This document shows, piece by piece, positions 46,260 through 59,920 of a DNA stretch of 60,386 nt (position 1 is its first letter; each line of letters begins with the position of its first letter). Position numbers and translations under genes: made by a program. The DNA comes from a virus: positions 1 through 60,386 of IMG/VR virus record IMGVR_UViG_3300048927_000480, one strand, 5' to 3'. Below the pieces are notes generated by a model. It was not told the DNA's origin, ran no database searches, and saw nothing but the letters and a program-made list of their open reading frames with translations.

Positions 46260-46280
46260 ACCTTACCAGTTGGACGACGT
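46260..46280 (-). promoter_or_regulatory. Leftward promoter/operator motif (ACGTCG-TCCAACTGG-TAAGGT)
   Basis: Motif family member on the - strand. -10 TAAGGT (complement of 46260-46265) lies only 6 nt from ATG 46253. Confidence 0.5.
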
Positions 46281-46286
46281 CATGTG

Positions 46287-46316
46287 TTGTACTGCGTGTA
46301 GTCCAGAGGGTAAACT
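46287..46316 (+). promoter_or_regulatory. Rightward promoter TTGTAC-18-TAAACT with GTAGTCCAGAGGG spacer
   Basis: -35 at 46287-46292 and -10 at 46311-46316. The spacer matches the motif family. Lies 34 nt upstream of ATG 46351. Confidence 0.55.
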
Positions 46317-46350
46317 CCCGGGCTACGCGCCGACAAGAGACGAGGGGCAC

Positions 46351-46899
46351 ATGAGACTCAGGCCGATCAAGCCAAAACCGCCGGGCTACCGCACCGCTCA
46401 ACTGGTGCTGGTCCCGGTGATCGCCGCACTGCTTGCGCTCAACGGGCTGATCGTGGCGTGTAACGATAAGGAGAACTCGTGGAACAGCCCGCGGAACACC
46501 CCGAGCGAAGCGCCGGTGCTCCCGGCCCGTCGGCTGGCTTCGGAGATCCAGACCACACCGACGCCGGCGACCTTCACGCCAGATGCTGCAGCAACCCGGA
46601 CACCGGGTGCGGGTGCAGGGACTGGCTCCCCGAGCCAGGAGACCCTGCCTACCTCGGTTGGCTCACCGAGCTCGACGAAACCCTCTGACCAGCAAGAACA
46701 GCAAAATTTTTCGGCGCGTCCCACCGTGCTTCCTGAATCGATTCAGAACGACGGGCTGACCCCGTGCCAGCGGTCCGCGGCCGCGTGCTTCGGTGTCGGT
46801 GGCCTCGACTCGTTGCTGGACAACCTCGACGGGATCGGTACCCAGCGTGGGAACAGTCAGTTCTGCTTCGAGTTCCAGGATGGCTGTGAGCGTCGATGA
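46351..46899 (+). CDS. Putative lipoprotein / membrane-anchored secreted protein (182 aa)
   Basis: Signal-anchor LVLVPVIAALLALNGLIVAC with a lipobox-like LIVAC, then a Pro/Thr/Ser-rich linker and a Cys-containing C-domain. Confidence 0.6.
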   Translation: MRLRPIKPKPPGYRTAQLVLVPVIAALLALNGLIVACNDKENSWNSPRNTPSEAPVLPARRLASEIQTTPTPATFTPDAAATRTPGAGAGTGSPSQETLPTSVGSPSSTKPSDQQEQQNFSARPTVLPESIQNDGLTPCQRSAAACFGVGGLDSLLDNLDGIGTQRGNSQFCFEFQDGCERR

Positions 46900-47222
46900 G
46901 CACCGAGATGCCCAGTCCGCAGGAATGCAAGGCCAAGGCGATCATTCTGATCCGGGACTCCTCGAATCTGCACGACCTCACCGAGCAGAGCGTCATGGTC
47001 CAGGCCGCGCAGGTTTGGGCGACGCTGGCCACCGTGCCCGAGCCGCTCGAGGAGCTCACCGCGGTCGCGCCGACGTGGGTCGGGGGCCCCACGATCGAGC
47101 AGCCGCCGGTGCTCGTCTGCCCGCACGGGTACCAGGCCCGGATCGACACCATCGAGGCCGAGGGCCGGCCGGTCCAGCTCCGCTACACCTGGCACGACTG
47201 CCCCAGCCCGAGCTGTCCATGA
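46896..47222 (+). CDS. Hypothetical protein (108 aa)
   Basis: ATGA overlap with the upstream CDS. Confidence 0.6.
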   Translation: MSTEMPSPQECKAKAIILIRDSSNLHDLTEQSVMVQAAQVWATLATVPEPLEELTAVAPTWVGGPTIEQPPVLVCPHGYQARIDTIEAEGRPVQLRYTWHDCPSPSCP

Positions 47223-47662
47223 GTGTGACCAAGGGCTACCCGGTCCGGCTCAAGCCGCGGTCGCCCTCGCAGCTGCGGGACGTCCCGTGCGGCCGCGCGC
47301 CGGCGGGCCTGTTCGACATTCCACCGCGGCCCGCCCGCGGCGCCAGGCTCCGGGCTCGACAGTTGCAGGTCGCCATGGCCCAGGCGGTGTGCCGCGGCGT
47401 CCCGGGCCGGCCCGGGTGCCCGTTCCGGCTCGAGTGCCTGGCATGGGCGCTGCAGGCCCGTGAGATCGGCGTCTACGGTGGAGTCGAGGTGACCTCAACA
47501 ATCTTGCGGAATGAGCAAAGCCGGCGGGAGATGATGGATCGTGCCACCGAGGAAGCGGCAGCACCGGCGAACCAACGGGGAAAGCTGGCAGAACGATCCG
47601 GACAAGCCGGCGGAGGTGAACCGGCACGACCGCAAGCCGAAGGGCCAGCCCGAGTATCTTGA
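47219..47662 (+). CDS. whiB: WhiB-family Fe-S transcription factor-like protein (147 aa)
   Basis: Four Cys in a WhiB arrangement (..PCG.., AVCRG, GCPFRLEC) followed by GVYGG (the GxWGG turn). The 3' 122 nt overlap the next CDS. Confidence 0.7.
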   Translation: MSVTKGYPVRLKPRSPSQLRDVPCGRAPAGLFDIPPRPARGARLRARQLQVAMAQAVCRGVPGRPGCPFRLECLAWALQAREIGVYGGVEVTSTILRNEQSRREMMDRATEEAAAPANQRGKLAERSGQAGGGEPARPQAEGPARVS

Positions 47663-48284
47663 TCACCCGAAGAACGCCAAGGGCGAGAACATCTGCGGTG
47701 GCCGCAAGAGCAACGGGAAGATCTGCGAACTCACCGCGGGGCTGTACACCGACCACATCGGCTGGGGAAAGTGCAGCTTCCACGGAGGCAACACTCCGAC
47801 GTTGCGGACGAGCGCAGCGCGGTACATGGGCGGAGAGGTGATCGACCGGATGACGAATGCGTACGGGCTCGGCGGGCCGGTCGAAATCACCCCGCAAGAG
47901 GCACTACTGCAAGAGGTTCGCCGCTCAGCTGGGCACGTCGGGTTCCTGAAGGACCGGCTGAACATGTTCGACTTGAAACTTGGCGAGGAGGTTCTTTCCG
48001 AAGCCAAGCGCGAACTGGTGGAGCTGTACCAGAAGGAACGGCTCATGCTTGTCAAGGTGGCCAAGGCCGCGGTCGACGCGGGCATCGCACAGGAACGTGT
48101 GCAACTGGAGCGGGAGAAGGGTGTCAAGCTAGTAGAGGTCCTGCGCAAGGTCTTCGACGGGCTGAGCTTGAGCATCGAGCAGCAGCGCCTGCTTCCTATC
48201 CTCGTGCCGGCGGCGCTACGCGAGCTCACTGAGCCGAAGACCGTGATGCAGCTGGAGCAACCTCCGCAGTTGAGCGGCGGGTAG
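47541..48284 (+). CDS. Zinc-ribbon DNA-binding-like protein (CGG..GKIC...GWGKCSFHGG motif, 247 aa); small-terminase role only speculative
   Basis: Third-position GC is very high from GTG 47541 onward by hand count. Cys4/HGG motif followed by a helical C-terminus. Confidence 0.7.
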   Translation: MPPRKRQHRRTNGESWQNDPDKPAEVNRHDRKPKGQPEYLDHPKNAKGENICGGRKSNGKICELTAGLYTDHIGWGKCSFHGGNTPTLRTSAARYMGGEVIDRMTNAYGLGGPVEITPQEALLQEVRRSAGHVGFLKDRLNMFDLKLGEEVLSEAKRELVELYQKERLMLVKVAKAAVDAGIAQERVQLEREKGVKLVEVLRKVFDGLSLSIEQQRLLPILVPAALRELTEPKTVMQLEQPPQLSGG

Positions 48285-48299
48285 TCCGTATGCTAACGT
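48270..48299 (+). promoter_or_regulatory. Promoter TTGAGC-18-TAACGT (motif family)
   Basis: -35 at 48270-48275 and -10 at 48294-48299. Drives the ORF-less structured segment. Confidence 0.55.
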
Positions 48300-48305
48300 C
48301 GAAAA

Positions 48306-48430
48306 GACGCTGCGTGGCGCAGCGGGCCGCCGGGTTTCCCGATTCAACTCCCCCTCGTCCCGGCGGTCGGAAACCCCTTGCCTGGTCTGCTTGGACCCCA
48401 CTAGACCGACTGGGCGAGGGGTTTCTTCTT
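48306..48430 (+). ncRNA. Candidate phage small RNA (about 125 nt)
   Basis: No ATG-initiated ORF. Hairpins at 48309-48323 and 48325-48334/48359-48368. Long terminal stem 48370-48382/48412-48425 followed by TTTCTTCTT. Confidence 0.35.
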
Positions 48431-48457
48431 GTCCACGAGTCATCCAACTGGTAACGT
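48429..48457 (+). promoter_or_regulatory. Promoter TTGTCC-17-TAACGT (motif family)
   Basis: -35 at 48429-48434 and -10 at 48452-48457. Lies 32 nt upstream of ATG 48490. Confidence 0.55.
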
Positions 48458-48489
48458 CAATCCTCTACCAGCGAACAAGGAGATCCCCG

Positions 48490-48696
48490 ATGGGAGCGAT
48501 CATCGTGCAGGAGCAGCCCGAGGTCAACATGACCACCGAGGCCGCCGAACAGGCGCTCGACCAGAAGATCACCACCCCGGACAACTGCATCTGCGACTAC
48601 GCCACAGTCCTGCCGTACCACCTGCTCCAGCGGGTGATCAATCCGGCGTGCACCGTGGAGCACGGCGTGGAGCTGGAGCGGGAGCGCGACAAGTGA
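48490..48696 (+). CDS. Hypothetical protein (68 aa)
   Basis: ATG 48490 after AAGGAG. Confidence 0.6.
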   Translation: MGAIIVQEQPEVNMTTEAAEQALDQKITTPDNCICDYATVLPYHLLQRVINPACTVEHGVELERERDK

Positions 48697-48878
48697 GTAA
48701 CCCTGTGGTCATCAGGGTCTCCGTTGAAACACCTACGGAGTCCTATACCACTGACTTTGAAATTCCGCGGGAAGAGTGGAATGCCATGACGCCCGACGAG
48801 CGGGTCAAGTATGCGGAAGACACTGCTTCCACGGAGTTCTTCAGCTCTTGTAACTACGGATACTCGGTGCAGGAATGA
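48693..48878 (+). CDS. Hypothetical protein (61 aa)
   Basis: GTGA overlap with the upstream CDS. Confidence 0.55.
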   Translation: MSNPVVIRVSVETPTESYTTDFEIPREEWNAMTPDERVKYAEDTASTEFFSSCNYGYSVQE

Positions 48879-49060
48879 ACGATCTCCGGTTCGATGTCTG
48901 GGAGCAACAGGGCCGCGGCCGTGAAACGACCGGCTGGTCCAACGTCCTTCGCAACGTCTCGTTCGACGAGGCCGAGCAGTATGAGCTCGCGGCAGAAAAC
49001 CGGGTGCATGTCGAGATCCATGTTCCTCCGCACTTGCGGCTGACGTCATCCACTGGGTAA
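48875..49060 (+). CDS. Hypothetical protein (61 aa)
   Basis: ATGA overlap with the upstream CDS. Confidence 0.55.
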   Translation: MNDLRFDVWEQQGRGRETTGWSNVLRNVSFDEAEQYELAAENRVHVEIHVPPHLRLTSSTG

Positions 49061-49063
49061 CGT
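49034..49063 (+). promoter_or_regulatory. Promoter TTGCGG-18-TAACGT (motif family), internal to the 3' end of the upstream CDS
   Basis: -10 at 49058-49063 lies only 6 nt before ATG 49070, so a leaderless start is predicted. Confidence 0.5.
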
Positions 49064-49069
49064 AAGGGC

Positions 49070-49261
49070 ATGGCGAACACGAACCCGAGACGCGATGAAA
49101 TCGCGAAGAAGACCAACGATGCCACCCGGGCCAGGATCGCAGCACGGCACAAGATCCTGGGCGACCGCAGTGTGGGTAAGGATCCGGATCACCCGGTTCC
49201 TGGTTCGCAGAGATGGGCCGAGCAACAGGGGCTCGCCGAGAAGAAGGAAGACCCGAAGTGA
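49070..49261 (+). CDS. Hypothetical basic protein (63 aa), apparently leaderless
   Basis: ATG 49070 has no room for an RBS after the -10. Confidence 0.55.
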   Translation: MANTNPRRDEIAKKTNDATRARIAARHKILGDRSVGKDPDHPVPGSQRWAEQQGLAEKKEDPK

Positions 49262-50586
49262 GCGAGACGTTCAAGGCCGCACTCGACGCGGCGCTGCAGT
49301 TTCACAACAGCCACACCGGGGACGCGTCCAAGGGCGATATCCTTGACACGGCTAAGATTTTCTACCGGGAGCTCGCCGTGGCGGCTCCGAGCGGTGTCGA
49401 CAACTTCACCGAGGACTGGGATCGTCAGGTCTGGACCTGGCTTCGCGTGCTCAACGGCGACCAGCTCGGCTGCGTCTCGACCGCCGTACAGCGGATCTCC
49501 GCCGAGCGGAACCCGTCCGTGGCACCACTACTTGCGCAGCCTCCGGGCCCGTACGCATCGGTGCCGCCCGTGCACCAGGAGGCCTGGGCCCTGCTCGACA
49601 AGCTGAACGGTCCGCAGCTGTACCCGGGCACCGCGGCGCCGATCGGCCCGCTCGTGACCCGTGACGAGCTGGAGCAGCGTCTCGCCGAGCTCGGCGGTGA
49701 CCGGAACAACGCCGGCGAAGTCGCGACGGCCGCCGGATCATGGCGTGACCGCACCCTGGCACCGGAGCCCGCTGCAATCAGCGAGGCTCTCGGGCGACAA
49801 GACGGGGAGACGCTGCTCGCCACCGCCGAGCGGGTCGCTACCGAACTCGCGGCTGCCAAAGACAAGATCCGACAGCTCGAGGGCAACTCGCTCGTGCTCC
49901 CGTACCCGCAGATCCTCGCCGCGATCAACGAGACCCTGGGCCGCCGGTCCAGCGAGGCACCGACCGCGGCCGCCGAGCGCGTGATGTCGGAGCTCGCGGG
50001 ATGGAAAATCCGAGCCGAGCACGCCGAGGCGCGGGTCACCGCAGCCAGGCCCGTCGCGCCGCCTCTGGCCGAGGCCGGTAACCAGATCCGGATCCGCACC
50101 CGCGGCGCCGACGTCTACACCTCGACCACCGTGGCCACGGAGCTGGAGTACAGCCCGACCGAGGGGTTCTTCGCCCTTGTCCCGCCGGGCGCGTTCGCCG
50201 AGGGCCGCCGGGACGAGATCGCGACCGAGAGCATCGACGCGCTGCTCAAGGCCCTCGCGCCGGCCAAGCTCAGCGGGACGATCCTGCAGCAGGTGAAGGT
50301 ACTCGTCGGTACCGTGTCTGGTCTGCGCAACCGGATCAAAGAGCTGGAGACAGGGCGGGAAACCTTCGAGAGCGAGATCCGGACTCTTCTGGGCGCCCAG
50401 GACGAGCAGGAGAGCGATGATCACTGGTGCCCCCGGCAACCGACCCTCGATGCAGTACAACGGGTAATGCGCAGGTTGCTCGAAATCGACCGCCACGCCG
50501 ATGGTGCGAAGAAGACAAAGCACGAGGTCATCGACGCACTCCAGAACACGTGGCACTACGACGGGCACAAGGAGCTGAAAGCCTGA
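49258..50586 (+). CDS. Hypothetical coiled-coil-rich protein (442 aa)
   Basis: GTGA overlap with the upstream CDS. Long helical segments. Confidence 0.7.
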   Translation: MSETFKAALDAALQFHNSHTGDASKGDILDTAKIFYRELAVAAPSGVDNFTEDWDRQVWTWLRVLNGDQLGCVSTAVQRISAERNPSVAPLLAQPPGPYASVPPVHQEAWALLDKLNGPQLYPGTAAPIGPLVTRDELEQRLAELGGDRNNAGEVATAAGSWRDRTLAPEPAAISEALGRQDGETLLATAERVATELAAAKDKIRQLEGNSLVLPYPQILAAINETLGRRSSEAPTAAAERVMSELAGWKIRAEHAEARVTAARPVAPPLAEAGNQIRIRTRGADVYTSTTVATELEYSPTEGFFALVPPGAFAEGRRDEIATESIDALLKALAPAKLSGTILQQVKVLVGTVSGLRNRIKELETGRETFESEIRTLLGAQDEQESDDHWCPRQPTLDAVQRVMRRLLEIDRHADGAKKTKHEVIDALQNTWHYDGHKELKA

Positions 50587-50885
50587 TGGCGATCACACGG
50601 TTCATCAGCTCCTGGCGGAAGCCCGAGGGCCTCGACATCGGGGAAATGCGGCGGCATCACGACATGCTGCTGGCGCTGCGATATCTTGCCGACCACCCTG
50701 ATGAGGAGATCTGGATCCCCGGAACATCCATTGCCCTCGTCGAGGAGCTCACACGACTCGTCGAGGCCTGTGGCGGCAATGGGAACGTCATGGTGATCGA
50801 TAGGCTCAAGGAAGCCGCCACCCCCGACCAACCAGCGGGGCGAACCTGGTCCCTCGTTGACCCCACGAAAGCGGAAAAGGCATGA
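50586..50885 (+). CDS. Hypothetical protein (99 aa)
   Basis: TGATG overlap with the upstream CDS. Confidence 0.6.
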   Translation: MAITRFISSWRKPEGLDIGEMRRHHDMLLALRYLADHPDEEIWIPGTSIALVEELTRLVEACGGNGNVMVIDRLKEAATPDQPAGRTWSLVDPTKAEKA

Positions 50886-51487
50886 CCACCAGAGACCGGA
50901 TCTTCGCCGAGATCACCGCGGAACGGCAACGGCAAGACGAGAAGTGGGGAGAGCAGAACCACCCGCTCACTTTCCCCGGAAGTTATCGGACGCCCGAGTT
51001 CTGGCACACCGAGGCTGAGTCCTGGAAGCAGACCAACGATCACCGCGCCGGGGTCCGGAACGCTGATGGATACCCCGCGGACCGCAACCGCGCCTGGGAC
51101 GGGATCCTCGAAGAAGAGGTCGCCGAGGCCTTTGGCTCCGGACGCGTGGGCCTGCAGTACGCGGAGTTCGTCCAGGCTGCCGGCGTCACCGTGGCGATCC
51201 TTGAGCTGCTCAATCGCCAGTGCTTCGAGCAGACTGGCCACCTCGCCTCGTGTTCGGCGCTCGACGTCGACTGGGTCGTCACTGCGCCGGAGGCCTGCGA
51301 CTGCGAGCCGAAGCTGCGGTACGAGCCCAAGCGGCTGGACACCCTGTTCGATACCTGGGGGATCTGGGATAACCGCGAAGAGGACTTCTGGCCAGGCGAC
51401 GTCGGCAACTCCGAGGGAGACTGCCGGTCGCGGGCGAGGGCCCTGAACGAGGAGTGGGCGATGAAGCGGTCCAAGGAGGACGTGTGA
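50882..51487 (+). CDS. MazG-like nucleotide pyrophosphohydrolase domain protein (201 aa)
   Basis: N-terminal ERQRQDEKWGEQNH ... WDGILEEEVAEA resembles the all-alpha NTP-PPase signature. Read by eye only. Confidence 0.55.
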   Translation: MTTRDRIFAEITAERQRQDEKWGEQNHPLTFPGSYRTPEFWHTEAESWKQTNDHRAGVRNADGYPADRNRAWDGILEEEVAEAFGSGRVGLQYAEFVQAAGVTVAILELLNRQCFEQTGHLASCSALDVDWVVTAPEACDCEPKLRYEPKRLDTLFDTWGIWDNREEDFWPGDVGNSEGDCRSRARALNEEWAMKRSKEDV

Positions 51488-52452
51488 GCGACGAGTTCTG
51501 GACACCGGAAGAAGACGCCGAGTTCGCCCAGGCTGAGCTGGACGACGCTGCAGCGAGTCAGGCGGCCGAAGACCAGTTCCCGACCGGCTGGACCGACGTC
51601 GGTGTGACGACGGAGCCGATCCAGCTCGGCCGGAGCATCGTGATCGGGCCAGCGGAGCTCTACACGCAGCCGGTGACGAGCCCGATCTTCGAGGCGATCG
51701 ACCGGGCCAGCCAGGACCGGACACCTGTCGTCGAATCCACTACTGACATAGGCTCATTCGCCCGGATCCTGGAGTCGCTGACCGAGAGTCTCACCAGCTT
51801 CACCAAGACCGTCCAGGGCGCCGCGAAGACGGCCAGCTCCGCCGGAGACAAGCTCGACGCCCTCGAGCAGATCTACGGCCCGCTGACCCACCACCGGCGC
51901 CAGGTGGCGCTCATCGGCACCGGGAAGCGTCGGCATCGTGCGACCCGAGGCACGCGGACCGAGCTCGGCCTGAACCGCGCTGAGCACGCGCGTCGACGGC
52001 GGCTGTACTCCGAGCGGCTCCGGCGCGACCGGCGGCGGATCCGGAAGGGCCGGGCGCCCATCCTCCGCTCGAGCACCTTCGAGGCGGTCATCCCGAACGC
52101 CCAGATCAACGTCACGAAGGCCGGCCCCGAGTACTGGGGCATGGAGATCGTCGCAGCTCCCTGGGTGCCCGAGGACCAGGCCTACATCATCGACCCGAGC
52201 ACCCTCGACGGCTATCGGTTCACCGAGCCGAAGGACCTCGACGTGGACCTCGCCACGTGGCGAGCGAGTTGGCGCGGCCGGTTGATGAGCACCCTCGGGC
52301 TGTACAGCGGCCTCACGGGCCGGACGCATCGGGTGACGAACTTCCTGATCCAGGCCGACACGGGGCGACGCCGTGGATACCGGCCCAGCCGGGTCTGGGT
52401 CGATAACGTCGAGGTGGACGTTGACCGCTGGCTGGACGACGGGGGCGCGTGA
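51484..52452 (+). CDS. Hypothetical protein (322 aa)
   Basis: GTG 51484 overlaps the upstream stop. Confidence 0.65.
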   Translation: MSDEFWTPEEDAEFAQAELDDAAASQAAEDQFPTGWTDVGVTTEPIQLGRSIVIGPAELYTQPVTSPIFEAIDRASQDRTPVVESTTDIGSFARILESLTESLTSFTKTVQGAAKTASSAGDKLDALEQIYGPLTHHRRQVALIGTGKRRHRATRGTRTELGLNRAEHARRRRLYSERLRRDRRRIRKGRAPILRSSTFEAVIPNAQINVTKAGPEYWGMEIVAAPWVPEDQAYIIDPSTLDGYRFTEPKDLDVDLATWRASWRGRLMSTLGLYSGLTGRTHRVTNFLIQADTGRRRGYRPSRVWVDNVEVDVDRWLDDGGA

Positions 52453-53051
52453 TCATGCAGATCTGGGACTCCATCCTCGACCGCCTGCTCCAATTCGGTG
52501 GCACCGTGCGCAATGGCCGCCGAACCCCGGAGACCGTCTACGCCTCGTTCGACGACAACCTGGACGACCGGACCACGAACTTCCCGCTCTTCCTCGTGCC
52601 GGAGGAGCCGTTGGCCCGGTTCGTTGTCGAGGCCGTGCAGGAGAAGCTCGCCCGGGCGCGGCGTCCCGCGGACCCCGAGGCCTGGCTCGCTGACCAGCTA
52701 GCCCAGCTGCCGGTCGGCGCGGCGATGGACTCTCGTCGTGATGCCTGCCTCGAGCCCGGTCCGAACTACGGCCGATGGACCACCACCCTCATCGCAGGCA
52801 GTCCCACTTTTACGGCCATCGAGAAGCTCGCGCAGGAGTACGGCGAGATGTGCGCGGCCCGTGCACTCTCCGAGTACGAAGACCTGACCATCGTCACGAA
52901 GGATGAGGGCGGTCTACACGTGCTCGTCGGCGGCGTCGAAGTCCGACCGCTCGCTGACGTATTCCCGGACGGCGGTGTCGCGCTTCGGGAAATGGGCGCC
53001 GGTCCGCTCGCCGTGGTGCACGGCCTCGATGAAGGCGAAGTCGTCCGGTGA
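52449..53051 (+). CDS. Hypothetical protein (about 200 aa)
   Basis: GTGA overlap with the upstream CDS. ATG 52455 is an alternative start. Confidence 0.65.
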   Translation: MIMQIWDSILDRLLQFGGTVRNGRRTPETVYASFDDNLDDRTTNFPLFLVPEEPLARFVVEAVQEKLARARRPADPEAWLADQLAQLPVGAAMDSRRDACLEPGPNYGRWTTTLIAGSPTFTAIEKLAQEYGEMCAARALSEYEDLTIVTKDEGGLHVLVGGVEVRPLADVFPDGGVALREMGAGPLAVVHGLDEGEVVR

Positions 53052-53182: not shown

Positions 53183-53185
53183 ACC

Positions 53186-53317
53186 ATGGATGACGGGGAC
53201 ATGGCACGGGCAGAGCGACTCGCGAGGCAGCTTGCTGACGCAAAGCACGATCGGGACAGGCCTACGCCGGAACAGGGCAACCAAGGAGATTCTCAAGACA
53301 ACGAGGAATCCTCGTGA
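53186..53317 (+). CDS. Possible acidic micro-protein (43 aa)
   Basis: ATG 53186. Its stop overlaps GTG 53314 of the next CDS (GTGA). Confidence 0.4.
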   Translation: MDDGDMARAERLARQLADAKHDRDRPTPEQGNQGDSQDNEESS

Positions 53318-53706
53318 TCGCCGTTACCCTTCCACATAGACTGCTCGTCACCGGTAGCCGGCACTACGATGACCGGGCCAAAGTCCACAAAGCACTGTGG
53401 CCATGGAGCATCGTGTCCTCGTGCATGCTCATGCCCTTGACGCTGGTGCACGGAGCGTGCCCGTACGGTGGTCTGGACATGATCGCCGCGGAGACCTGGT
53501 CCGAGTGGGGTTTGCCGGTGTACGCCGTCCCGGCGGAGAACGAGGCCCACACCAGCCGGTTCATGGGTCCGGAGCGCAACCAGAAGATGGTCGACCTCGG
53601 CGGGTACGCGGCGTGCCTGGCCTTCCCCATCGACCAGAGCTTCGGCACCCGGGACTGTATGCGCCGGGCTCAGGCCGCCGGCATCCTCACCTTGGAGGTG
53701 AAGTGA
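53314..53706 (+). CDS. DUF2493 / SLOG-superfamily (YspA-like) protein (130 aa)
   Basis: LLVTGSR...LVHGACPYGGLD..A...A.....V...PA......R..GP.RN..M pattern typical of DUF2493. Confidence 0.6.
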   Translation: MIAVTLPHRLLVTGSRHYDDRAKVHKALWPWSIVSSCMLMPLTLVHGACPYGGLDMIAAETWSEWGLPVYAVPAENEAHTSRFMGPERNQKMVDLGGYAACLAFPIDQSFGTRDCMRRAQAAGILTLEVK

Positions 53707-53708
53707 GT

Positions 53709-54104
53709 ATGACTGCTCCCTCGGTTCGACTTTGGGAAGTTGAGCACCCCTATTACTGCGCCGAAGGCAACTACTTCAGCAACGAGTGCCATCAGGAATA
53801 CGGTTCATGGCAAGCTTTCCTTCGTACAGAAGGTGATGCGGACATGGACTACAACCTGGTGTACCGATGGGACTGGGAGTGCGATGACGACGAAACGGAC
53901 ACCGTCGATGGTCGCAAGGAGTATGCTTCCAGGTTCGGAATGCGGGATCATGCCTGGACCTTGAAGCTCTTTTTCATGGGTCAGCGCAAGGCACTCGCTC
54001 GAAGCGTTCACGTGAGCGTGTGCAAGGACGATGAGCCATCCGTGCGCGTATGGCTTAGCGAACGAGCTGAGTATCTCCGTAAAATTTGGGAGCCGTTGCT
54101 GTGA
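53709..54104 (+). CDS. Hypothetical protein (131 aa)
   Basis: ATG 53709. Trp/acidic-rich. Confidence 0.65.
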   Translation: MTAPSVRLWEVEHPYYCAEGNYFSNECHQEYGSWQAFLRTEGDADMDYNLVYRWDWECDDDETDTVDGRKEYASRFGMRDHAWTLKLFFMGQRKALARSVHVSVCKDDEPSVRVWLSERAEYLRKIWEPLL

Positions 54105-54547
54105 CTGTTCCGAACCATGACTGGGCCAAGGTACTCGCTGAGCCGACAACCGAGACGATCGACTTCGAACTCCGGCAGGACGTTCGGATCCCGGTCAGTG
54201 ACATCGCCAAGTACCGGTTCAACGGCGCCGGCTTCATGCTCAAGCTCAGTCCGATGCAGACTGCCGCTTTGCATATCATGGTCCGTCGTGCAATCGCCGC
54301 AGAGATGCAGAAGCTGGTGCACAGCTACAACACCCGCCCTGGTGGCCTGGTGTCTCCGTCCAATGTGGCCTATCACATCGCGGAAACAGCAGAGAAGATC
54401 CGCACATGGCTGCCGTCCTGGTGCGTGATCACCACTTACGCTGACGGCGCTCCGGACGAAGAACAACCCTTTCCGTATCTGGACGATGCGGTACTCGACG
54501 CCGGGCTTGAGATGCCCGGGATGACCAAGAAAGTTCGGATGCGATGA
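54101..54547 (+). CDS. Hypothetical protein (148 aa)
   Basis: GTGA overlap with the upstream CDS. Confidence 0.6.
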   Translation: MTVPNHDWAKVLAEPTTETIDFELRQDVRIPVSDIAKYRFNGAGFMLKLSPMQTAALHIMVRRAIAAEMQKLVHSYNTRPGGLVSPSNVAYHIAETAEKIRTWLPSWCVITTYADGAPDEEQPFPYLDDAVLDAGLEMPGMTKKVRMR

Positions 54548-55203
54548 CTGAGCCGAAGACGACGTACACCCGCGCCGAGATCCGAACGGTCCGTGAAGCG
54601 TTTCGGGACTGGAAGTTCGGACCTCGGTCCATCGAGCCGGATGGTCGGGTCACTGTGCTCTATGACCAGCGACCCACGGAACAGTCGATCGGGTTCGTGT
54701 GCCAGCACGAGCACGGTTGGTTGTTGGTCAAGGACGCGGACGACCTCCGGAGCCAGGCGAAGCGGGGAGTCCCGGGGGCGTGGCGTGTGCTCGTACACAG
54801 CCTCGACGGTTCCGAAGTTCTGGTCGTGCCGACGGAATGGGAACTGGAGAGGGGCGGGTTCCGGGTGACCGTGGACGACGAACCGGCCGAGGAGGAAGGG
54901 CTGAAGGACGGCGAGTACGAGGCCACGGAAGCCGACGAACAGATCGACCGAGGCATCGACTCTCTCCACCGCCCTACCGTCGACGGGCTGAGCGCTGCTC
55001 GAGCACAGGCGCATTTCACGGCGTCGATAGCGATCTCGTTACGGGAGCTTCTGGCCTTGTACCGGAAGTACGAGCCGGAGAACATGGAGGTCATCGTCGA
55101 TCCGGGGCCGGACGAGGACCAGGAGAAACGGGCCGCAGCGGATGTGCCGGTGGATCGGCTCGATGGTCCGGTTGCCGACGAAGTGTTTCCCTGGGCGAGA
55201 TGA
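54544..55203 (+). CDS. Hypothetical protein (219 aa)
   Basis: ATGA overlap with the upstream CDS. Confidence 0.65.
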   Translation: MTEPKTTYTRAEIRTVREAFRDWKFGPRSIEPDGRVTVLYDQRPTEQSIGFVCQHEHGWLLVKDADDLRSQAKRGVPGAWRVLVHSLDGSEVLVVPTEWELERGGFRVTVDDEPAEEEGLKDGEYEATEADEQIDRGIDSLHRPTVDGLSAARAQAHFTASIAISLRELLALYRKYEPENMEVIVDPGPDEDQEKRAAADVPVDRLDGPVADEVFPWAR

Positions 55204-55222
55204 CCGTGTCGATTTGCGCGGG

Positions 55223-55278
55223 ATCCGCCCACCGTTCACCGATGCCCGTGTCCTTTTTGGACAAATCCGCCCACCGTT
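55223..55278 (+). promoter_or_regulatory. Two direct copies of ATCCGCCCACCGTT (55223-55236, 55265-55278), putative operator pair
   Basis: Exact 14-mers 42 bp apart. The second lies in the spacer of the TTGGAC-16-TAGATA promoter. A third near-copy is at 59277-59289. Confidence 0.5.
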
Positions 55279-55284
55279 TAGATA
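55257..55284 (+). promoter_or_regulatory. Promoter TTGGAC-16-TAGATA
   Basis: -35 at 55257-55262 and -10 at 55279-55284, upstream of the GAGGAGG RBS and ATG 55311. Confidence 0.5.
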
Positions 55285-55310
55285 CACCTCTCATCGAGGA
55301 GGCGAGACAC

Positions 55311-55595
55311 ATGTCGCCCTCGCCGTGGCCTCGCGAGCTCGGAATCCGAGAGACGCAGTCGGTGCCGGTTCTCGCGATTGCGCCCCGTTGGGTGCGGACG
55401 GAGCGGAGATGGTGGGATCCGCGTCCGCGGATCACTGTGACGGTGCGCGCGAGACTGATGGGCGGGGTCCGGGTGTACCGGTTCTGGACTGCTGCCTCCG
55501 CCGAGCAGCGGGTGCAGAGGTTCCTCGACGCTCACCGGCGGATCTACCGCATGTACGCGCAACCCGCTGCGCCGGCTCGAAGTGGAGCCGTGTAG
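55311..55595 (+). CDS. Hypothetical Arg/Trp-rich basic protein (94 aa)
   Basis: ATG 55311 with GAGGAGG upstream. Confidence 0.6.
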   Translation: MSPSPWPRELGIRETQSVPVLAIAPRWVRTERRWWDPRPRITVTVRARLMGGVRVYRFWTAASAEQRVQRFLDAHRRIYRMYAQPAAPARSGAV

Positions 55596-55845
55596 GCTAT
55601 TCTCTCGAAGTGGGGAGATGCCACTTCACCGGCCCCATGGCCTGCTCTCGGCGAATTTCATCATCCGCGGCCACCCCCGCCGGCGCCCAGAGTGGAGCCA
55701 TGGGGCTCTTTGCGCGTTCATGATCCACTAGTCCAGTTTGATCATGGTCTAGTGTTGATCTCACTTTCCGATGATCTTGGTGACTGTCCACTGTGGACTT
55801 GATCATCGGACTCCCTTCCTACGGACAGGGTTGACAGACTTCGGG

Positions 55846-55878
55846 ACCCGGGTGTATCTGCGCACCCGGGTTCTTCTC
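55846..55878 (+). terminator. Putative intrinsic terminator
   Basis: ACCCGGGTG (55846-55854) pairs with CACCCGGGT (55863-55871), followed by TCTTCTC. Placed just upstream of the next motif-family promoter. Confidence 0.5.
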
Positions 55879-55922
55879 ATGCTCCGGGGTCGCCGGCGCT
55901 ACCACAAGGATGAGACCGTTCT

Positions 55923-55954
55923 GTTACCCAACGACGTGATCCAGGTGCTAACGT
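55923..55954 (+). promoter_or_regulatory. Putative early promoter/operator P3 (GTTACC..ACGTGA-N9-TAACGT)
   Basis: Same architecture and spacing as P1, P2 and P4. TAACGT at 55949-55954, 36 nt upstream of ATG 55991. Confidence 0.55.
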
Positions 55955-55990
55955 GGTCGTCAACAGCCCAGAGAGCACAGGGAGAACGCA

Positions 55991-56473
55991 ATGACTTGGA
56001 TGACGGTCCAGATTGACGGCGACACTGCGGCTACCCGTATCAGCGAGGGCTACCCGCCGGTTCTCGCGCCGGAGTACTACGCGGAGGACCTCGAAACGGT
56101 TCGCGTGGTCCACGCGACGTCGGGGGACTTCTCGTGCAAGCACTGCGGTGAGCGCTGGAGCACGCAGGACGAGGACCGTGACGAGGTGGCTGCGCAGGTG
56201 TGCCCGCAGAACGTGTGCGAGGACCCGCAGTGCGAGTGCGGAGAGCACACTCACGAACTCGAAGACGCGCCGATGACGTGGTTCGAAGAGGCCACGATCA
56301 AGGTGGACCAGCGACGGGAAGAGGTGTCCGTGTCGTTCGAGGTCAACGGCAAGCGCTTCCGGATGGGCGTGCACTACGCCGCGAACGTCGACGAGGGTGG
56401 CTCCCTGGTCCTGAGCTTCCCGGGCACCTCCGGCACACGGGAACTCGCCGGCCGCACTGTCGTCGCGGACTGA
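55991..56473 (+). CDS. Hypothetical Cys-rich protein (160 aa)
   Basis: ATG after GGGAGAA. CKHC...C....C...C.C pattern. Confidence 0.65.
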   Translation: MTWMTVQIDGDTAATRISEGYPPVLAPEYYAEDLETVRVVHATSGDFSCKHCGERWSTQDEDRDEVAAQVCPQNVCEDPQCECGEHTHELEDAPMTWFEEATIKVDQRREEVSVSFEVNGKRFRMGVHYAANVDEGGSLVLSFPGTSGTRELAGRTVVAD

Positions 56474-56567
56474 CACCGGCCCCTGGCACCACGGTAGGTT
56501 CCCCGCCACGGCGGGGCGCCCTCCGCGGCTCCATGGACCACAGTGGACACGACGAAAGGACCTCGCC

Positions 56568-57671
56568 ATGCCGCACACCAACCCGTTCGCTCCGGACCCT
56601 GCCAACCCGTACACGTCGTGGTCCTCACAGGAGCTGGAAAACGCCAGGGGCACGTGGGCCACCCCGCAGGCGGAACAGTTCGACCGTCCGGATGCTGTCC
56701 GTAAAGCCAGTCATGTTGGGGAGGAACTCAGCCGGCGCGCGGACGTTGATCGTGCCGTCGAGCTCTGGGAGCGACTGTGCGCTGTCCCGTTCGTGACCGG
56801 CGAGACGCAAGGCGAGTACCTTTACTCCACGCGGCACCTGAGTCCCGAGGGCCGCGGCCGGACCGTCGGCGCTGTTTCACGGATGCCGAGCCGCGAGGAA
56901 CTCGAAGCGCTGGTCCTGAGCGACGGTGAGGAGACCACCTACCCCACCCACGACGTCACGGAGCCCAGCGGCTACCACTGGACTCAGGACACGTCGCCGT
57001 GGTCCGGCGGGCTCCGCCTGTACCCCATCACCCTCACGCTGATTTCCTGCGGTGACTACCACGGGTCCGACGTCGATGCGGCCAACAACCGCACCCTTGC
57101 CAGGTACGCGGGAGTGACCGTACGCGAGCCGAACACCGGAGGCATGAGCAGTGTGTTCAACGTGTCCACCACCGTCGTCGGTGAGATGTCCACCTTCGCA
57201 GACGATCCCGAGACGCGTGACCCGCGCGACGTGCGTACCGAGGCATTGGACGCGTTGGAGTTTCTCGTAAAGACCATGGAAGGCCTGATCGACTACGCGT
57301 TGATCGACGAACAGGCTCATTCCGAGTACCTGGTAGAACTTGCCGAAGGGGCCTGGTCCGATCACCTCGAATCGGACACCCGCGACGCGCTCGCGGACAT
57401 TGCCCGAGACACTCTCGACTTTCCCCACGGTGTTACCGGTTTGGGCGTGTTCGACGACGCTGAGGACCTGATCGATGCGCTCTACGCTGCGTCGGGGAAC
57501 CGGCTTCCCGTGCCGACGTCGTTGGACGGTGACGACGCGGTTCGTGTGGCCTATTTCGAATTCGACGAAAACGAGTGGAACGCGGAGACGGCTACTAGCG
57601 TCGTGAACGACCGGCACGAGGACGCCGTGAAGCACGTCGCGCGGACCGTGTTCGGCTGGAACGTCCCGTGA
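56568..57671 (+). CDS. Hypothetical acidic protein (367 aa)
   Basis: ATG 56568 after AAAGGA. Asp/Glu-rich. Confidence 0.7.
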   Translation: MPHTNPFAPDPANPYTSWSSQELENARGTWATPQAEQFDRPDAVRKASHVGEELSRRADVDRAVELWERLCAVPFVTGETQGEYLYSTRHLSPEGRGRTVGAVSRMPSREELEALVLSDGEETTYPTHDVTEPSGYHWTQDTSPWSGGLRLYPITLTLISCGDYHGSDVDAANNRTLARYAGVTVREPNTGGMSSVFNVSTTVVGEMSTFADDPETRDPRDVRTEALDALEFLVKTMEGLIDYALIDEQAHSEYLVELAEGAWSDHLESDTRDALADIARDTLDFPHGVTGLGVFDDAEDLIDALYAASGNRLPVPTSLDGDDAVRVAYFEFDENEWNAETATSVVNDRHEDAVKHVARTVFGWNVP

Positions 57672-57868
57672 TACGCGCGGTGACCCGGTACGCAGACCGT
57701 ACCGGGTACCCTGCCCTGTTCGATGTCCTGGCCGTGCGTGGCGGGCAACTGCGAGTGCAGTTCGTCGGACACGCCGGCCCGGAGGGCGAACCCGTCCCCG
57801 CGGCCCCTCCGCTCCCTGGTCCTCAGTGGCTTTCTGCCCGACGCTTCCGACTGTCCGAAGAGGAGTAG
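57668..57868 (+). CDS. Hypothetical protein (66 aa)
   Basis: GTGA overlap with the upstream CDS. Confidence 0.5.
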   Translation: MIRAVTRYADRTGYPALFDVLAVRGGQLRVQFVGHAGPEGEPVPAAPPLPGPQWLSARRFRLSEEE

Positions 57869-57870
57869 CT

Positions 57871-58239
57871 GTGTTCACCGTAGCCTCTGCGCCTTCGTCG
57901 CTTTCCTCGCGTGTCCGGGCCGGCGTCGCTGCACTGGACAGCGTGGAACCGTTCTGGCCCGTGGCCATGAACGAGCACACCCTTGACGTGGGTTCCGACA
58001 CGCGGTGTCCCCTCGGGCAGCTCTGGGGACAGTTCTCGCGCGGCCTGAAAGCACTGGGCGTACCCGAGGACGACGCGGCTCTTTACGGGTTCGACTCGCC
58101 GACAGCGTTGGATGAGTCCGTTTCGGAGGATGACGACAGTTTCGCGGATACGGTCGAACAGGAGTACGCCACCCTGTCCCGCATGTGGCGCTACGTGGTG
58201 CGCAATCGCACTGAGGGCCGTATTGTCATCGCCACGTGA
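57871..58239 (+). CDS. Hypothetical protein (122 aa)
   Basis: GTG 57871 with GAGGAG 5 nt upstream. Confidence 0.6.
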   Translation: MFTVASAPSSLSSRVRAGVAALDSVEPFWPVAMNEHTLDVGSDTRCPLGQLWGQFSRGLKALGVPEDDAALYGFDSPTALDESVSEDDDSFADTVEQEYATLSRMWRYVVRNRTEGRIVIAT

Positions 58240-58267
58240 CCTTCACACGTAGTCCATAGGCTAACGT
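58236..58267 (+). promoter_or_regulatory. Promoter/operator (GTGACC..ACGTAG-TCCATAGGC-TAACGT)
   Basis: TAACGT at 58262-58267. ATG 58275 follows after 7 nt, so the transcript may be leaderless. Confidence 0.5.
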
Positions 58268-58274
58268 CAGTGCC

Positions 58275-58496
58275 ATGGCCAGAAAGGTAGGCAACACGAT
58301 GCCCGTACCCACCCCCGTCATCACGAAGATGACCTATCACGCGAACAGCGACACGGGATGCGAAGTCCACGTGTGGACGGAGAAACACGGCGAGATGGAC
58401 ATCACCCTGACCGTGGACCAGTACCACCGGATCCACACTCAGCTCGCCGACACAGGTCGGGCGACGGTGCCGACGTACGGGACGGCGGCAGCATGA
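58275..58496 (+). CDS. Hypothetical protein (73 aa)
   Basis: ATG 58275 would be leaderless. The alternative ATG 58299 is preceded by AAAGGTAGG. Confidence 0.55.
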   Translation: MARKVGNTMPVPTPVITKMTYHANSDTGCEVHVWTEKHGEMDITLTVDQYHRIHTQLADTGRATVPTYGTAAA

Positions 58497-58801
58497 AGAC
58501 AAACACCCGTCACCGCACGCACGTCGTGTCCGTGTCCATTCAGGACTCGCCGATCCTGCCTGTTCCGTTCGCGCAGGAAGGGACCGTGATGTCCCTGACC
58601 CGTGCAGAAGTCGACTGGCGACGGCTGGGCCCCGAGCCCTGGCGCCTGTACGTCGTCACGGTCTGGGGCGCCGCGAACAACGGCTCCGGCGTGCGCGTCG
58701 ATTACTTCCCCGACAACCCGATTAAACAGCCGCCCCCGGAGCTGTCCGAGTGGATCGCGTCCACGCATCCGGGCCGAGTCAGTGAGGAGAGCACGGCATG
58801 A
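58493..58801 (+). CDS. Hypothetical protein (102 aa)
   Basis: ATGA overlap with the upstream CDS. Confidence 0.6.
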   Translation: MKTNTRHRTHVVSVSIQDSPILPVPFAQEGTVMSLTRAEVDWRRLGPEPWRLYVVTVWGAANNGSGVRVDYFPDNPIKQPPPELSEWIASTHPGRVSEESTA

Positions 58802-59262
58802 GCGAGGAAAACCGCACCCGCGTGTGGCTGGTCAAGACGCCTGAATACTTCGACGCCGTGATCGTGGCGTTCGCGGAGCCGGACAGCGACGAGTGCGCTG
58901 GCATCTTCCTGTACGAACCGGGCACGGACCCGGTCGAGTTAGTGACCGTGGGCATTGACGGCGTGGCAACGGAATTCGAACACGCCTCCGTCACGGCCAC
59001 ATTCGACCGCGGTTGCGAGGACGAGGAGGCAGACGTCTCCTATCCCGGCGACGAGATGATCACTCTCGCCCAGCGTGATGCAGACGTGGCGGCCGCGGTG
59101 GAGGCGCACGAAACCCTGGCGGGCAACCACGAGAAGCTCACGGAGCAGGCGCGGGCACTAGTCGCCGCTGTGCAGGAGGAACACCGGGCCACACACGAAC
59201 CTGGACCGATCGAACTGTGCGGGTACGCGACGTGTCAGACTGCACGTGAGGTGGACCTGTGA
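58798..59262 (+). CDS. Hypothetical strongly acidic protein (154 aa)
   Basis: ATGA overlap with the upstream CDS. Asp/Glu-rich. Confidence 0.65.
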   Translation: MSEENRTRVWLVKTPEYFDAVIVAFAEPDSDECAGIFLYEPGTDPVELVTVGIDGVATEFEHASVTATFDRGCEDEEADVSYPGDEMITLAQRDADVAAAVEAHETLAGNHEKLTEQARALVAAVQEEHRATHEPGPIELCGYATCQTAREVDL

Positions 59263-59336
59263 CCGCCGGGGCGCATTCCGCCCACCGTTCGCGGTTTCCT
59301 CGGCGAAGACACACCCGACGTGCTCTGTGCCGAGCC

Positions 59337-59591
59337 ATGATGCTCACGGAGATGGAAGCTTTGCGGTTCCGGGCAGAGTGGGCTGTGTTCGTGGCACGGG
59401 TGGCCGATCAGCGGTACGACACGACCCGTGCGGCCATGTACCGGCAGATGGCCGAAGACTGCGCACGGGGCGCGAAAGAGCTCTACGTCCGGGCGGAGAA
59501 GTGCCGGCCCTGGCGAGAACGCGCGTGGCTCGCCCTGGTGAAGTGGAGCCGCGCACTCCGGCGGTCACTGGGTGCCGGAGCGGAGCCGTGA
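59337..59591 (+). CDS. Hypothetical helical protein (84 aa)
   Basis: ATG 59337. Arg/Ala/Glu-rich helices. Confidence 0.55.
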   Translation: MMLTEMEALRFRAEWAVFVARVADQRYDTTRAAMYRQMAEDCARGAKELYVRAEKCRPWRERAWLALVKWSRALRRSLGAGAEP

Positions 59592-59848
59592 TGCCGGCAG
59601 GGATCTGGGCCGACGTAGTGGACTCGCTGTCCGGTCGGCGCTACGGCGGAATGGAGTGCACCCACGGGATCCCTGACCGAGGTGACTTTCTGCTCACCCG
59701 AGAACCCCGGGGAAGGGGTGTCACGGAACCGGTGACGTGGGTGGTGGTCGTAGAAGTGGCCTGGATACCGGAGCAACATCGTGTGGTGCTTGGTGTCCGG
59801 AAAGCCATCCTGCCGACGTACCTCAGTCAGGCCGTCGACGGTACGTGA
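59588..59848 (+). CDS. Hypothetical protein (86 aa)
   Basis: GTGA overlap with the upstream CDS. Confidence 0.55.
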   Translation: MMPAGIWADVVDSLSGRRYGGMECTHGIPDRGDFLLTREPRGRGVTEPVTWVVVVEVAWIPEQHRVVLGVRKAILPTYLSQAVDGT

Positions 59849-59888
59849 GCCGGTGGACATCGGCAAGGTCAACAACCGAGACCTTGCC

Positions 59889-59920
59889 GTGACCCATAGA
59901 CGTTAGCCATGGGGTAACGT
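59889..59920 (+). promoter_or_regulatory. Putative early promoter/operator P4 (GTGACC..ACGTTA-N9-TAACGT)
   Basis: TAACGT at 59915-59920. The leader TGGCTC..CAGCACGCC..CGGAGGTCACC parallels that of P2. Lies 37 nt upstream of GTG 59958. Confidence 0.55.

Follow-up and report, generated by a model that had tools for sequence, protein, structure and literature searches.

A recurrent 21-bp element in the early arm of an uncultured soil phage: predicted host-type promoters with a putative built-in operator

Introduction

Why one short and partly symmetric DNA element should recur in front of so many early genes of a phage is the question raised by the virus record IMGVR_UViG_3300048927_000480, the whole of which (60,386 bases, 65.9% G+C) was analyzed and is called the window here. 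The phage is uncultured, high in G+C and derived from soil, and its host is probably an actinobacterium. An earlier, sequence-only reading of the window had listed ten copies of a 21-bp dyad motif embedded in promoters, and had proposed either that an operator for a dimeric phage regulator is superimposed on every early promoter or that the motif is recognized by a dedicated sigma factor or appropriator.

The reading which our analysis supports best, and to which we assign a probability of about 0.6, is that the motif constitutes the core of early promoters used by the host polymerase and that these promoters contain a built-in dyad operator for a phage-encoded dimeric regulator, the phage itself probably being lytic. 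The operator proposal is retained here in an amended form, the amendments concerning the number and location of the copies, the geometry of the -35 elements and a supposed WhiB-like protein.

Occurrence of the motif in the window and in related phages

All ten 21-mers were found again at their coordinates and on their strands (Table 1). With the consensus ACGTNRYCCANNNGSTAACGT and up to three mismatches, the two strands of the window yield 18 matches, several of which represent the reverse reading of near-palindromic sites, versus 0.69 +/- 0.99 (maximum 5) in dinucleotide-preserving shuffles. With a weight matrix derived from the ten sites, these reach 23-32 bits, or 11-30 bits when each site is left out in turn; the best score in Markov-shuffled genomes is 9-12 bits. 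Furthermore, the 29 upstream regions defined by gene calls from codon bias are enriched in TAACGT more than in any other hexamer, with occurrences in 7 regions and 0.45 expected. The matrix scan also added an eleventh copy at 15652-15672 on the plus strand, with a score of 25 bits. A literature search for the motif sequence itself returned nothing relevant, and the idea of a restriction site was rejected, as ACGT is not avoided in the genome (259 observed, 252 expected).

The copies are distributed in a highly ordered manner. Nine of the eleven are fully intergenic, in a genome of which 11% is intergenic (P ~1e-7), all eleven are oriented with the local genes, and ten lie inside the 15.2-kb early arm, which makes up 25% of the genome (P ~9e-6). 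Bases 1-127 of the window are identical to bases 60260-60386 (repeat D3), either as a terminal repeat or as the overlap of a circular assembly. The window is thus a complete phage genome with 60,259 unique bp, and the early arm continues past the window end into 128-1305, so that 201 and 706 are sites within this arm and not a separate place. The statement that the motif is found in the early arm only, with no copies in the late or replication blocks, consequently applies to ten of the eleven copies; the atypical copy at 15652 is situated in the replication/recombination block, within the end of the helicase gene, and these blocks are otherwise free of the motif. The same bias is seen in relatives, where approximately 20 kb each of replication and structural DNA from two genomes and 12.6 kb from a third contain a single copy, namely the one at the helicase end.

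The surroundings of this eleventh copy are of interest in their own right. The stretch 15560-15770, comprising the 3' end of the helicase gene and intergenic DNA, is 92% identical over four genomes which are otherwise ~70% identical, so that the constraint on these ~210 nt cannot be assigned to the motif alone; probably, a regulatory region overlaps coding sequence here.

The relatives were collected by several routes. A generic pattern scan of viral contigs gave 108 stretches, and among those examined only L046, a 59.2-kb root-metagenome contig and the sole locus with three separate copies, is related; it is syntenic with the window at ~70% DNA identity. Further relatives (L109-L118 and L135-L140, from soil and rhizosphere assemblies) were obtained via homologs of the helix-turn-helix (HTH) protein introduced below, of the 15758-16714 product (318 aa) and of the 59958-60371 product, the last of these searches leading to two short contigs, both with promoters of the class termed B below. 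Protein-seeded scans of viral contigs found no shared exact 8-residue words and no relatives, and a scan with GTAGTCNANNGGGTAAACT returned unrelated low-GC contigs only. Altogether, at least ten related metagenomic contigs carry the motif at equivalent promoters.

Promoter anatomy and two promoter classes

The 3' half of the motif had been interpreted as a -10 box of the form TAnnnT, and this interpretation is upheld: TAACGT, TAAGGT or TAAACT occupies positions 16-21 in ten of the eleven copies and in all promoter orthologs, with the copy at 15652 (TCACGT) failing to conform. Positions 13-14 are TG in most copies, which corresponds to an extended -10 element. At three copies a start codon follows the -10 box after 6-7 nt (ATG at 46253, 49070 and 58275), and this leaderless spacing is kept in relatives for both copies that have orthologs, although the intervening bases differ. 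Most of the remaining promoters precede leaders that are 26-31 nt long and contain ribosome-binding sites, an exception being 48279. Leaderless transcripts are common in Actinobacteria. Leaderless promoters have also been described for Cluster O phages (PMC4351075). A terminator scan of the E. coli type was uninformative in this genome. On the basis of these features the sites are very probably host-type promoters, their activity and start sites being predictions, and the promoter style (TAnnnT, TGn and leaderless starts) supports an actinobacterial host.

The promoter copies fall into two classes. Class A comprises the sites at 46280 (minus strand), 46296, 48279, 48437 and 49043, which possess a TTGnnn -35 element at 17-18 nt or, in the case of 46280, a TGn extended -10 alone, and whose left halves read, for example, ACGTCATC or ACGTAGTC. 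Class B comprises the sites at 55934, 58247, 59900, 201 and 706, which start with GTnAyC-N5-GTnACC-N5-ACGT, the genome having this pattern at these five places and at no other. Most class B copies are near-perfect palindromes (ACGTTAsC-N5-GsTAACGT), and that at 201-221 is a perfect 8-bp inverted repeat around 5 nt. The expectation of a TTGnnn or GTGACC element 17-19 nt upstream is therefore accurate for the four class A sites with TTGnnn but not for the five with GTGACC, where this -35-like hexamer lies 20 nt from the -10 box and is accompanied by a TGn extended -10 in three of the five; the copy at 46260-46280 has neither element. The upstream hexamers of class B resemble positions 3-8 of the motif and are in this sense half-site-like; they could represent extra half-sites for the same protein, be bound by another factor or constitute a -35 element that has been displaced. 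The class B architecture is kept in L046, L109, L110, L139 and L140. Promoters can also be lost within the clade: in L046 (11215-11300, corresponding to 58215-58300 of the window) the counterpart of the 58247 site has decayed to ATGCTATCCACAGGCCACTGT and lost its -10 box, with the upstream GTCAT-N-GTAAC repeats remaining, which indicates some promoter turnover.

The geometry of class B bears on the possibility that the dyad, at least at these promoters, binds an activator, in which case the HTH protein could be a repressor at class A and an activator at class B. A spacing of 20 nt between -35 and -10 elements normally requires a helper, which may act by MerR-like untwisting or as a response-regulator-like protein on GTnACC repeats spaced by 11 bp, and both this spacing and the GTnAyC-N5-GTnACC repeats are features of each of the five class B promoters and of no other place, with the repeats being conserved in the five relatives named above. 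Moreover, it is the distal half of the early arm that holds class B, and these promoters may accordingly be delayed-early. However, the dyad covers the -10 box and is centered near -17, rather than midway between the -35 and -10 elements as at MerR-type promoters, no MerR-family or response-regulator domain was found in the open reading frames (ORFs) scanned, and the TGn extended -10 of three of the five promoters can work without a -35 element. We therefore consider activation through the dyad to be distinctly unlikely. A MerR-type activated promoter in the strict sense was rejected on the grounds that the 20-nt spacing is restricted to class B, the dyad center is displaced and no MerR domain was detected in the ORFs scanned.

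Two further observations concern the DNA between and beside the class B promoters. A second conserved motif, (a)TCCGCCCACCGTT, occurs at 55225-55236 and 55267-55278, 42 bp apart in the gap 55204-55457, and again at 59278-59289 in the gap 59263-59336. The pair is found at the equivalent place in L046, L109, L110, L111 and L114, with L046 also retaining the third copy. The second TCCGCCCACCGTT copy is located between TTGGAC and TAGATA and may mark another type of promoter or operator. In addition, the 404-nt gap upstream of the 55934 promoter contains a low-GC patch (55700-55800) with repeated TGATCA/GATCAT and CCACT..GTGGAC elements.

At the class A promoter 48279, the approximately 130 nt downstream are free of ORFs, and a 7-bp GC-rich hairpin (CGCTGCG..CGCAGCG) directly follows the predicted start. 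This stretch, 48300-48436, may encode a small RNA or an attenuator.

Table 1. Motif copies, candidate regulator gene and gene blocks of the window. Coordinates are those of the window; N5 denotes five arbitrary bases.
Position	Strand	Feature	Sequence and promoter elements	Genomic context	Orthologs
46260-46280	-	HTH-gene promoter copy, class A	ACGTCGTCCAACTGGTAAGGT; TGG extended -10 + TAAGGT; no TTGnnn or GTGACC element	ATG 46253 lies 6 nt after -10 box (leaderless)	L109, L110, L111, L114, L115, L117, L118 (equal 6-nt ATG distance)
46296-46316	+	First rightward early promoter, class A	GTGTAGTCCAGAGGGTAAACT; -35-like TTGTAC 46287-46292, 18-nt spacer	Drives 46351-46899	Seven relatives
48279-48299	+	Class A copy	GGGTAGTCCGTATGCTAACGT; TTGAGC 48270-48275, 18-nt spacer	Overlaps final 6 nt of gene 47541-48284	L046, L110, L111, L114
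48437-48457	+	Class A copy	GAGTCATCCAACTGGTAACGT; TTGTCC 48429-48434, 17-nt spacer	Drives 48490-48696 via AAGGAG ribosome-binding site	L046, L109, L110, L111, L114
49043-49063	+	Class A copy	ACGTCATCCACTGGGTAACGT; TTGCGG 49034-49039, 18-nt spacer	ATG 49070 lies 6 nt after -10 box (leaderless)	L046, L109, L111 (ATG distance of 6-7 nt retained)
55912-55954	+	Class B promoter	GAGACC-N5-GTTACC-N5 + motif ACGTGATCCAGGTGCTAACGT at 55934-55954	Drives 55991/56000-56473 (repeat family D2)	L046, L109, L110 (whole 43 nt retained)
58225-58267	+	Class B promoter	GTCATC-N5-GTGACC-N5 + motif ACGTAGTCCATAGGCTAACGT at 58247-58267	ATG 58275 lies 7 nt after -10 box (leaderless)	Decayed in L046
59878-59920	+	Class B promoter	GAGACC-N5-GTGACC-N5 + motif ACGTTAGCCATGGGGTAACGT at 59900-59920	Drives 59958-60371	L046, L139, L140
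179-221	+	Class B promoter	GTGACC-N5-GTGACC-N5 + motif ACGTTACCCAGGTGGTAACGT at 201-221	Drives 259-645	L046, L139, L140
684-726	+	Class B promoter	GTTATG-N5-GTCACC-N5 + motif at 706-726, identical to 201-221	Drives 762-986	
15652-15672	+	Atypical copy	AAGTAGTCCAGATGGTCACGT; TCACGT instead of -10 box; TTGCCA 18 nt upstream	Inside final codons of DEAD/ResIII helicase gene 13833-15704, 85 nt ahead of gene 15758-16714	L135, L136, L137
45972-46253	-	XRE-type HTH protein gene, 93 aa, candidate motif binder		First gene in operon 46253-44333	
46253-44333	-	Short leftward operon		XRE-type HTH gene first; RuvC-like resolvase at 45191-45799	
46351 to window end, on to 1305	+	Early arm		Small, mostly unrecognizable genes	
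3392-13505	-	Replication block		Prim-Pol/AAA_25 and family A DNA polymerase (Pfam/PHROG)	
13553-44141	+	Rightward block		DEAD/ResIII helicase, PD-(D/E)XK nuclease, then terminase, portal, capsid, tail, lysis	

Conservation of the left half-site and symmetry of the motif

The left half of the motif is subject to a constraint of its own. Across 34 sites from five genomes, G3, T4, C8, G14, T16, A18 and T21 are invariant, and in a set of 41 unique 21-mers T4, C8, G14 and A18 remain so. Within six orthologous promoter groups, the mean pairwise difference is 0-0.1 at positions 1, 3, 4, 7, 8, 14 and 16-21, approximately 0.1-0.2 at the -35 TTG, and 0.4-0.6 at positions 9, 11 and 12 and in both flanks. 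Between the -35 and -10 elements, group 1 (housekeeping) sigma factors do not contact specific bases. Positions 1-8, which lie in this spacer at about -27 to -20, are thus constrained beyond what the polymerase needs. The proposal that the left half (ACGTnrTC) and G14 are conserved in excess of the requirements of a housekeeping sigma factor was borne out in this way, the spacer positions being as invariant among orthologs as the -10 box itself. Within the -10 box, furthermore, the bases left free by TAnnnT, namely A18, C19 and G20, are conserved as well and form the mirror counterparts of C2, G3 and T4.

Such conservation has to be weighed against the view that the 21 bp constitute a promoter family only, read by the polymerase with a phage-encoded or unusual host sigma factor or with an appropriating factor, or else inherited as a duplicated cassette, and that no operator protein is involved. 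In four of the class B copies the similarity extends over ~62 nt and takes in the first transcribed bases (repeat family D2), which is what cassette duplication would produce; all promoter copies have a -10 box as their right half; and with about 87% of the early proteins lacking a recognizable domain, a polymerase-binding factor could have escaped recognition. The class A promoters, however, have no flanking similarity and nevertheless keep positions 1-8, so that descent from a duplicated cassette cannot explain their left half, which furthermore stays fixed in orthologs as the neighboring bases drift and occupies a region, -27 to -20, that group 1 sigma factors do not read. The shape of the motif is also unlike that of an ECF or SigB/F promoter. 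As to a dedicated sigma factor or appropriator, the second of the original proposals, no sigma or WhiB domain was detected in the approximately 57 ORFs scanned, most early proteins having no detectable domain of any kind. On balance, a promoter family devoid of an operator appears unlikely.

The symmetry of the motif is real but incomplete. Among the 41 unique sites, the pairs 4-18 and 8-14 are complementary in 41 of 41, the pair 1-21 in 30, 3-19 in 27 and 2-20 in 24, with the pairs 5-17, 7-15, 9-13 and 10-12 being non-symmetric. The description of the motif as a dyad accordingly holds for the outer ACGT and for the C8/G14 pair, but does not extend to T7, C9 and A10, which are conserved without a symmetric partner.

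The same data allow an assessment of whether the inverted repeat folds into a functional hairpin, in RNA or in single-stranded DNA, and serves for instance in termination, in processing or as a replication signal. Folding of the copies at 201 and 706 could give a stem of 8 bp closed by a loop of 5 nt, but most copies would pair at only 5-7 of the 8 positions, and compensatory changes, the absence of which argues against a hairpin, are seen at no pair: position 5 is free opposite a near-fixed A17, and position 19 changes when G3 does not. If the sites are promoters, moreover, most of the motif is located upstream of the transcript. A hairpin function is extremely improbable, and a hairpin or terminator was rejected as a candidate given the lack of covariation in 41 unique sites, of a T tract after the repeat and of an Rfam match.

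The candidate regulator

The protein most readily connected with the motif is the 93-aa XRE-type HTH protein whose gene lies beside the back-to-back pair of copies at 46260-46280 and 46296-46316, one of which is its own leaderless promoter. This arrangement recurs in L109, L110, L111, L114, L115, L117 and L118. The protein matches Pfam HTH_3 (E 1.8e-7) as well as PHROG repressor and regulator families, and its AlphaFold2 model has a pLDDT (predicted local distance difference test) score of 84. Residues 1-45 of the model superpose at 1-2 A on C.BclI, CylR2, ImmR and TP901-1 CI, with Foldseek E-values that are not significant for such a short domain. The same residues are nearly invariant in 14 homologs, and the tail varies. 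The most distant homolog (52% identity), encoded on a contig from a metagenome-assembled genome (MAG), L138, adjoins a recognizably altered site, CAGTTAGC-N6-GGTAAGGT. The placement of the gene corresponds to the classic layout of an autoregulated phage regulator, which constitutes circumstantial evidence.

Two other candidate binders had been named. The WhiB-like protein was not substantiated, since no real gene encodes the CxxCxxxxxC pattern and no Pfam match was obtained; the basic 55311-55595 product gave no family match.

A host transcription factor could also be envisaged as the reader of the dyad, tying the early genes to a host regulon or a physiological signal, and the conservation of the motif over phages whose HTH proteins are merely 61-98% identical would be compatible with this view. 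The recognition region of these proteins is itself nearly invariant, however, and the HTH gene is physically tied to the motif pair in every relative. The motif is not known to match actinobacterial operator consensus sequences such as those of LexA, IdeR, DasR, GlxR or HrcA. A host reader is, in our estimation, very unlikely.

Several points weigh against a built-in operator read by the HTH protein. The match to HTH_3 begins at profile position 12, meaning that the canonical XRE helix 1 is lacking, and the position of the gene is the sole ground for naming its product as the binder. The dyad is imperfect, and L111 and L114 have the TCCA block displaced by 3 nt in their orthologs of the 49043 site, which leaves room for a second contact or a different reader. 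The outer ACGT blocks are 17 bp apart from center to center, which is unusual for a small HTH dimer. Part of the conservation in class B, as its 62-nt similarity implies, is simple duplication. The copy at 15652 is devoid of a -10 box and is left unexplained by the promoter model. Finally, a scan with an E. coli-style consensus calls none of the sites, in which TAnnnT is supplemented by TGn or by a weak -35 element, the usual arrangement in Actinobacteria.

Taking both sides into account, we consider that the dyad is probably a protein operator; that the HTH protein is the one which binds it has, judged from its gene's position, a chance slightly short of even. Whether regulation would take the form of repression rather than activation is close to an even call.

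A proposed early circuit

If the dyad is an operator for a dimeric regulator, the anatomy of the motif would combine two functions in one sequence. Positions 16-21 would serve as the -10 box, often with positions 13-14 (TG) as its extension, and positions 1-8 (ACGTnrTC), in the spacer between the -35 and -10 elements, would mirror positions 14-21 (GsTAACGT), so that a dimer bound to the dyad would occupy -27 to -7 and thereby obstruct the polymerase. Upon entry, host RNA polymerase with its housekeeping sigma factor would fire all copies, one of which would drive the leaderless HTH gene at 45972-46253. The accumulating HTH protein would then bind the operators, shutting off the early operons and its own promoter, and the motif-free replication and structural blocks would carry on after this shut-off. 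The extra hexamers of class B may be further binding sites or provide a second regulatory input, giving rise to a delayed-early class.

In a variant of this circuit, a single XRE protein would execute a two-step program by repressing class A as immediate-early promoters and activating, or differently timing, class B. The direct half-site-like hexamers with their 11- and 13-bp spacing, together with the 20-nt gap, would make class B dependent on a higher-order complex, and in every copy the -10 box would be both the sigma target and half of the regulator site. Such a program is a distinctly improbable elaboration.

The presumed lifestyle of the phage is relevant to the kind of regulator that might be expected. 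Features of a lysogeny-immunity module were not found, there being no integrase or ParA/B domain in the approximately 57 ORFs, and the HTH family has one match in 185,579 species genomes, situated on a 3.2-kb MAG contig. The lack of an integrase and the single MAG-contig match make an early shut-off or Cro-like regulator of a lytic phage likelier than a lysogeny repressor.

Several implications follow for this group of phages, which is known only from soil and rhizosphere metagenomes. The motif provides a near-complete map of the early transcription units and names one testable regulator. The design is compact, in that the -10 box would double as half an operator in every early promoter, and it would allow co-ordinated shut-off without a sign of lysogeny. 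If the predicted binding is true, the 21-mer and the 93-aa protein would form a small orthogonal promoter-repressor pair for high-GC Actinobacteria. The type of circuit is familiar and unsurprising in principle, and is met here in a new phage group.

Other features of the genome

Genes were called from codon bias and scanned against Pfam and PHROG, and among the approximately 57 ORFs scanned no integrase, partition (ParA/B), sigma, WhiB or MerR domain was found; a genome scan revealed no tRNA genes. Actinoplanes phage phiAsp2 and Streptomyces phage TurkishDelight have terminases ~45% identical to the one encoded here. Other similarity to cultured phages consists of a weak DNA match to phages of Mycobacterium and Gordonia in a distant search, covering the Prim-Pol and DNA polymerase I genes, and a near-identity DNA search of a phage collection gave no match. 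The motif is absent from phiAsp2, where the best scores are 12 bits and lie within genes.

Between the ends of the early and replication arms, the ~2 kb at 1306-3391 contain no ORF with the codon bias of the genome. They harbor 11 copies of GGCGCACC(G), eight on the plus strand at 2162-2869 and three on the minus strand at 2950-3052, as well as several long imperfect inverted repeats, with no Rfam match. This region looks like an iteron array or origin.

In the rightward block, the portal gene is directly followed by a gene (22109-22468) whose product contains an Acb2/Tad1 hairpin domain (PF24729, E 2.5e-16), a family which includes sponges of cyclic-nucleotide defense signals; in L135 and L136 the domain is called at the equivalent place. 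Immediately ahead of the large terminase gene, 18673-18740 consists of two tandem 34-nt units, 94% identical and each with the GC-rich inverted repeat GCAGGAGCGGGGCTCTCGTGC, which may represent a terminator pair or a packaging signal. The gaps ahead of structural genes (24606-24642, 30052-30144 and 30619-30659) share GCGTACTCTAC or GCGTACTGAAG-like strings, and TACTGA and TACTCT are among the hexamers enriched upstream. These strings may be a late-gene signal.

Comparison with known systems

The concept of one repeated palindrome controlling several phage promoters has a tested precedent in mycobacteriophage BPs, which is the closest analogue of the system proposed here. The BPs repressor gp33 recognizes a single palindrome, present at five loci of which most are small intergenic regions, and has four promoters under its control, including a divergent pair beside the repressor gene; the full sites consist of two half-sites ~5 bp apart, one of which is often degenerate (PMC4557955, in which the term 'stoperators' also appears). 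The likeness lies in the repeated palindrome and in a regulator and an early operon that diverge from one short operator-bearing intergenic region. BPs differs in being temperate with integration-dependent immunity, whereas the present phage has no integrase found and no prophage relative. The BPs site, a 12-bp palindrome (CGACATATGTCG), is unrelated in sequence to the 21-mer, the right half-site is a -10 box here in every promoter copy, and binding was shown for BPs but is predicted in the present case.

Repeats of similar appearance have been described in two further groups of actinophages. The Cluster O repeat TGTTCGGNNNCCGAACA is present in more than 30 copies genome-wide, has no orientation and is separate from predicted SigA promoters (PMC4351075), and the Microbacterium Cluster EG repeat GATCAACCNNGGTTGATC is located 14-22 bp before start codons, upstream of right-arm genes (PMC7302621). 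As here, these are numerous short inverted repeats, conserved within a cluster despite diverged surroundings, often intergenic and upstream of non-structural genes, and of unproven function. Unlike them, the present motif forms a promoter core, is oriented, and occurs in ~11 copies that are nearly confined to one arm.

In Streptomyces phage phiC31, conserved inverted repeats bound by the c repressor were first seen at the repressor gene and recur by early promoters. Conserved intergenic operator copies next to actinophage early promoters are common to both phages, but phiC31 is temperate, its early promoters are not SigA-like and its 17-bp repeat is of another sequence. The stoperators bound by gp71 of mycobacteriophage L5 are asymmetric 13-mers, of which ~30 are spread over both arms, mostly away from promoters, and they block elongation. 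L5 likewise has many oriented copies in short intergenic regions, one of them overlapping an early promoter. A stoperator of the L5 type was nevertheless rejected, as the site described here is a dyad, with 10 of 11 copies in one arm and 10 of 11 forming a -10 box.

Restriction-modification C proteins such as C.BclI provide a parallel at the level of the regulator, being small XRE-type HTH proteins that act on dyad boxes overlapping their own promoter and autoregulate. Transcripts of C proteins are often leaderless. The HTH core of the phage model superposes on C.BclI at 1.8 A over 46 columns (Foldseek E 0.4, not significant), but the C-terminal beta-hairpin and helix of the phage protein have no C-protein counterpart, and C proteins control one or two promoters, compared with about ten here. 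In summary, the system differs from those known in its sequence, in the fusion of the right half-site with the -10 box, in its confinement to one arm, in the apparent lack of lysogeny and in the multi-repeat form of class B.

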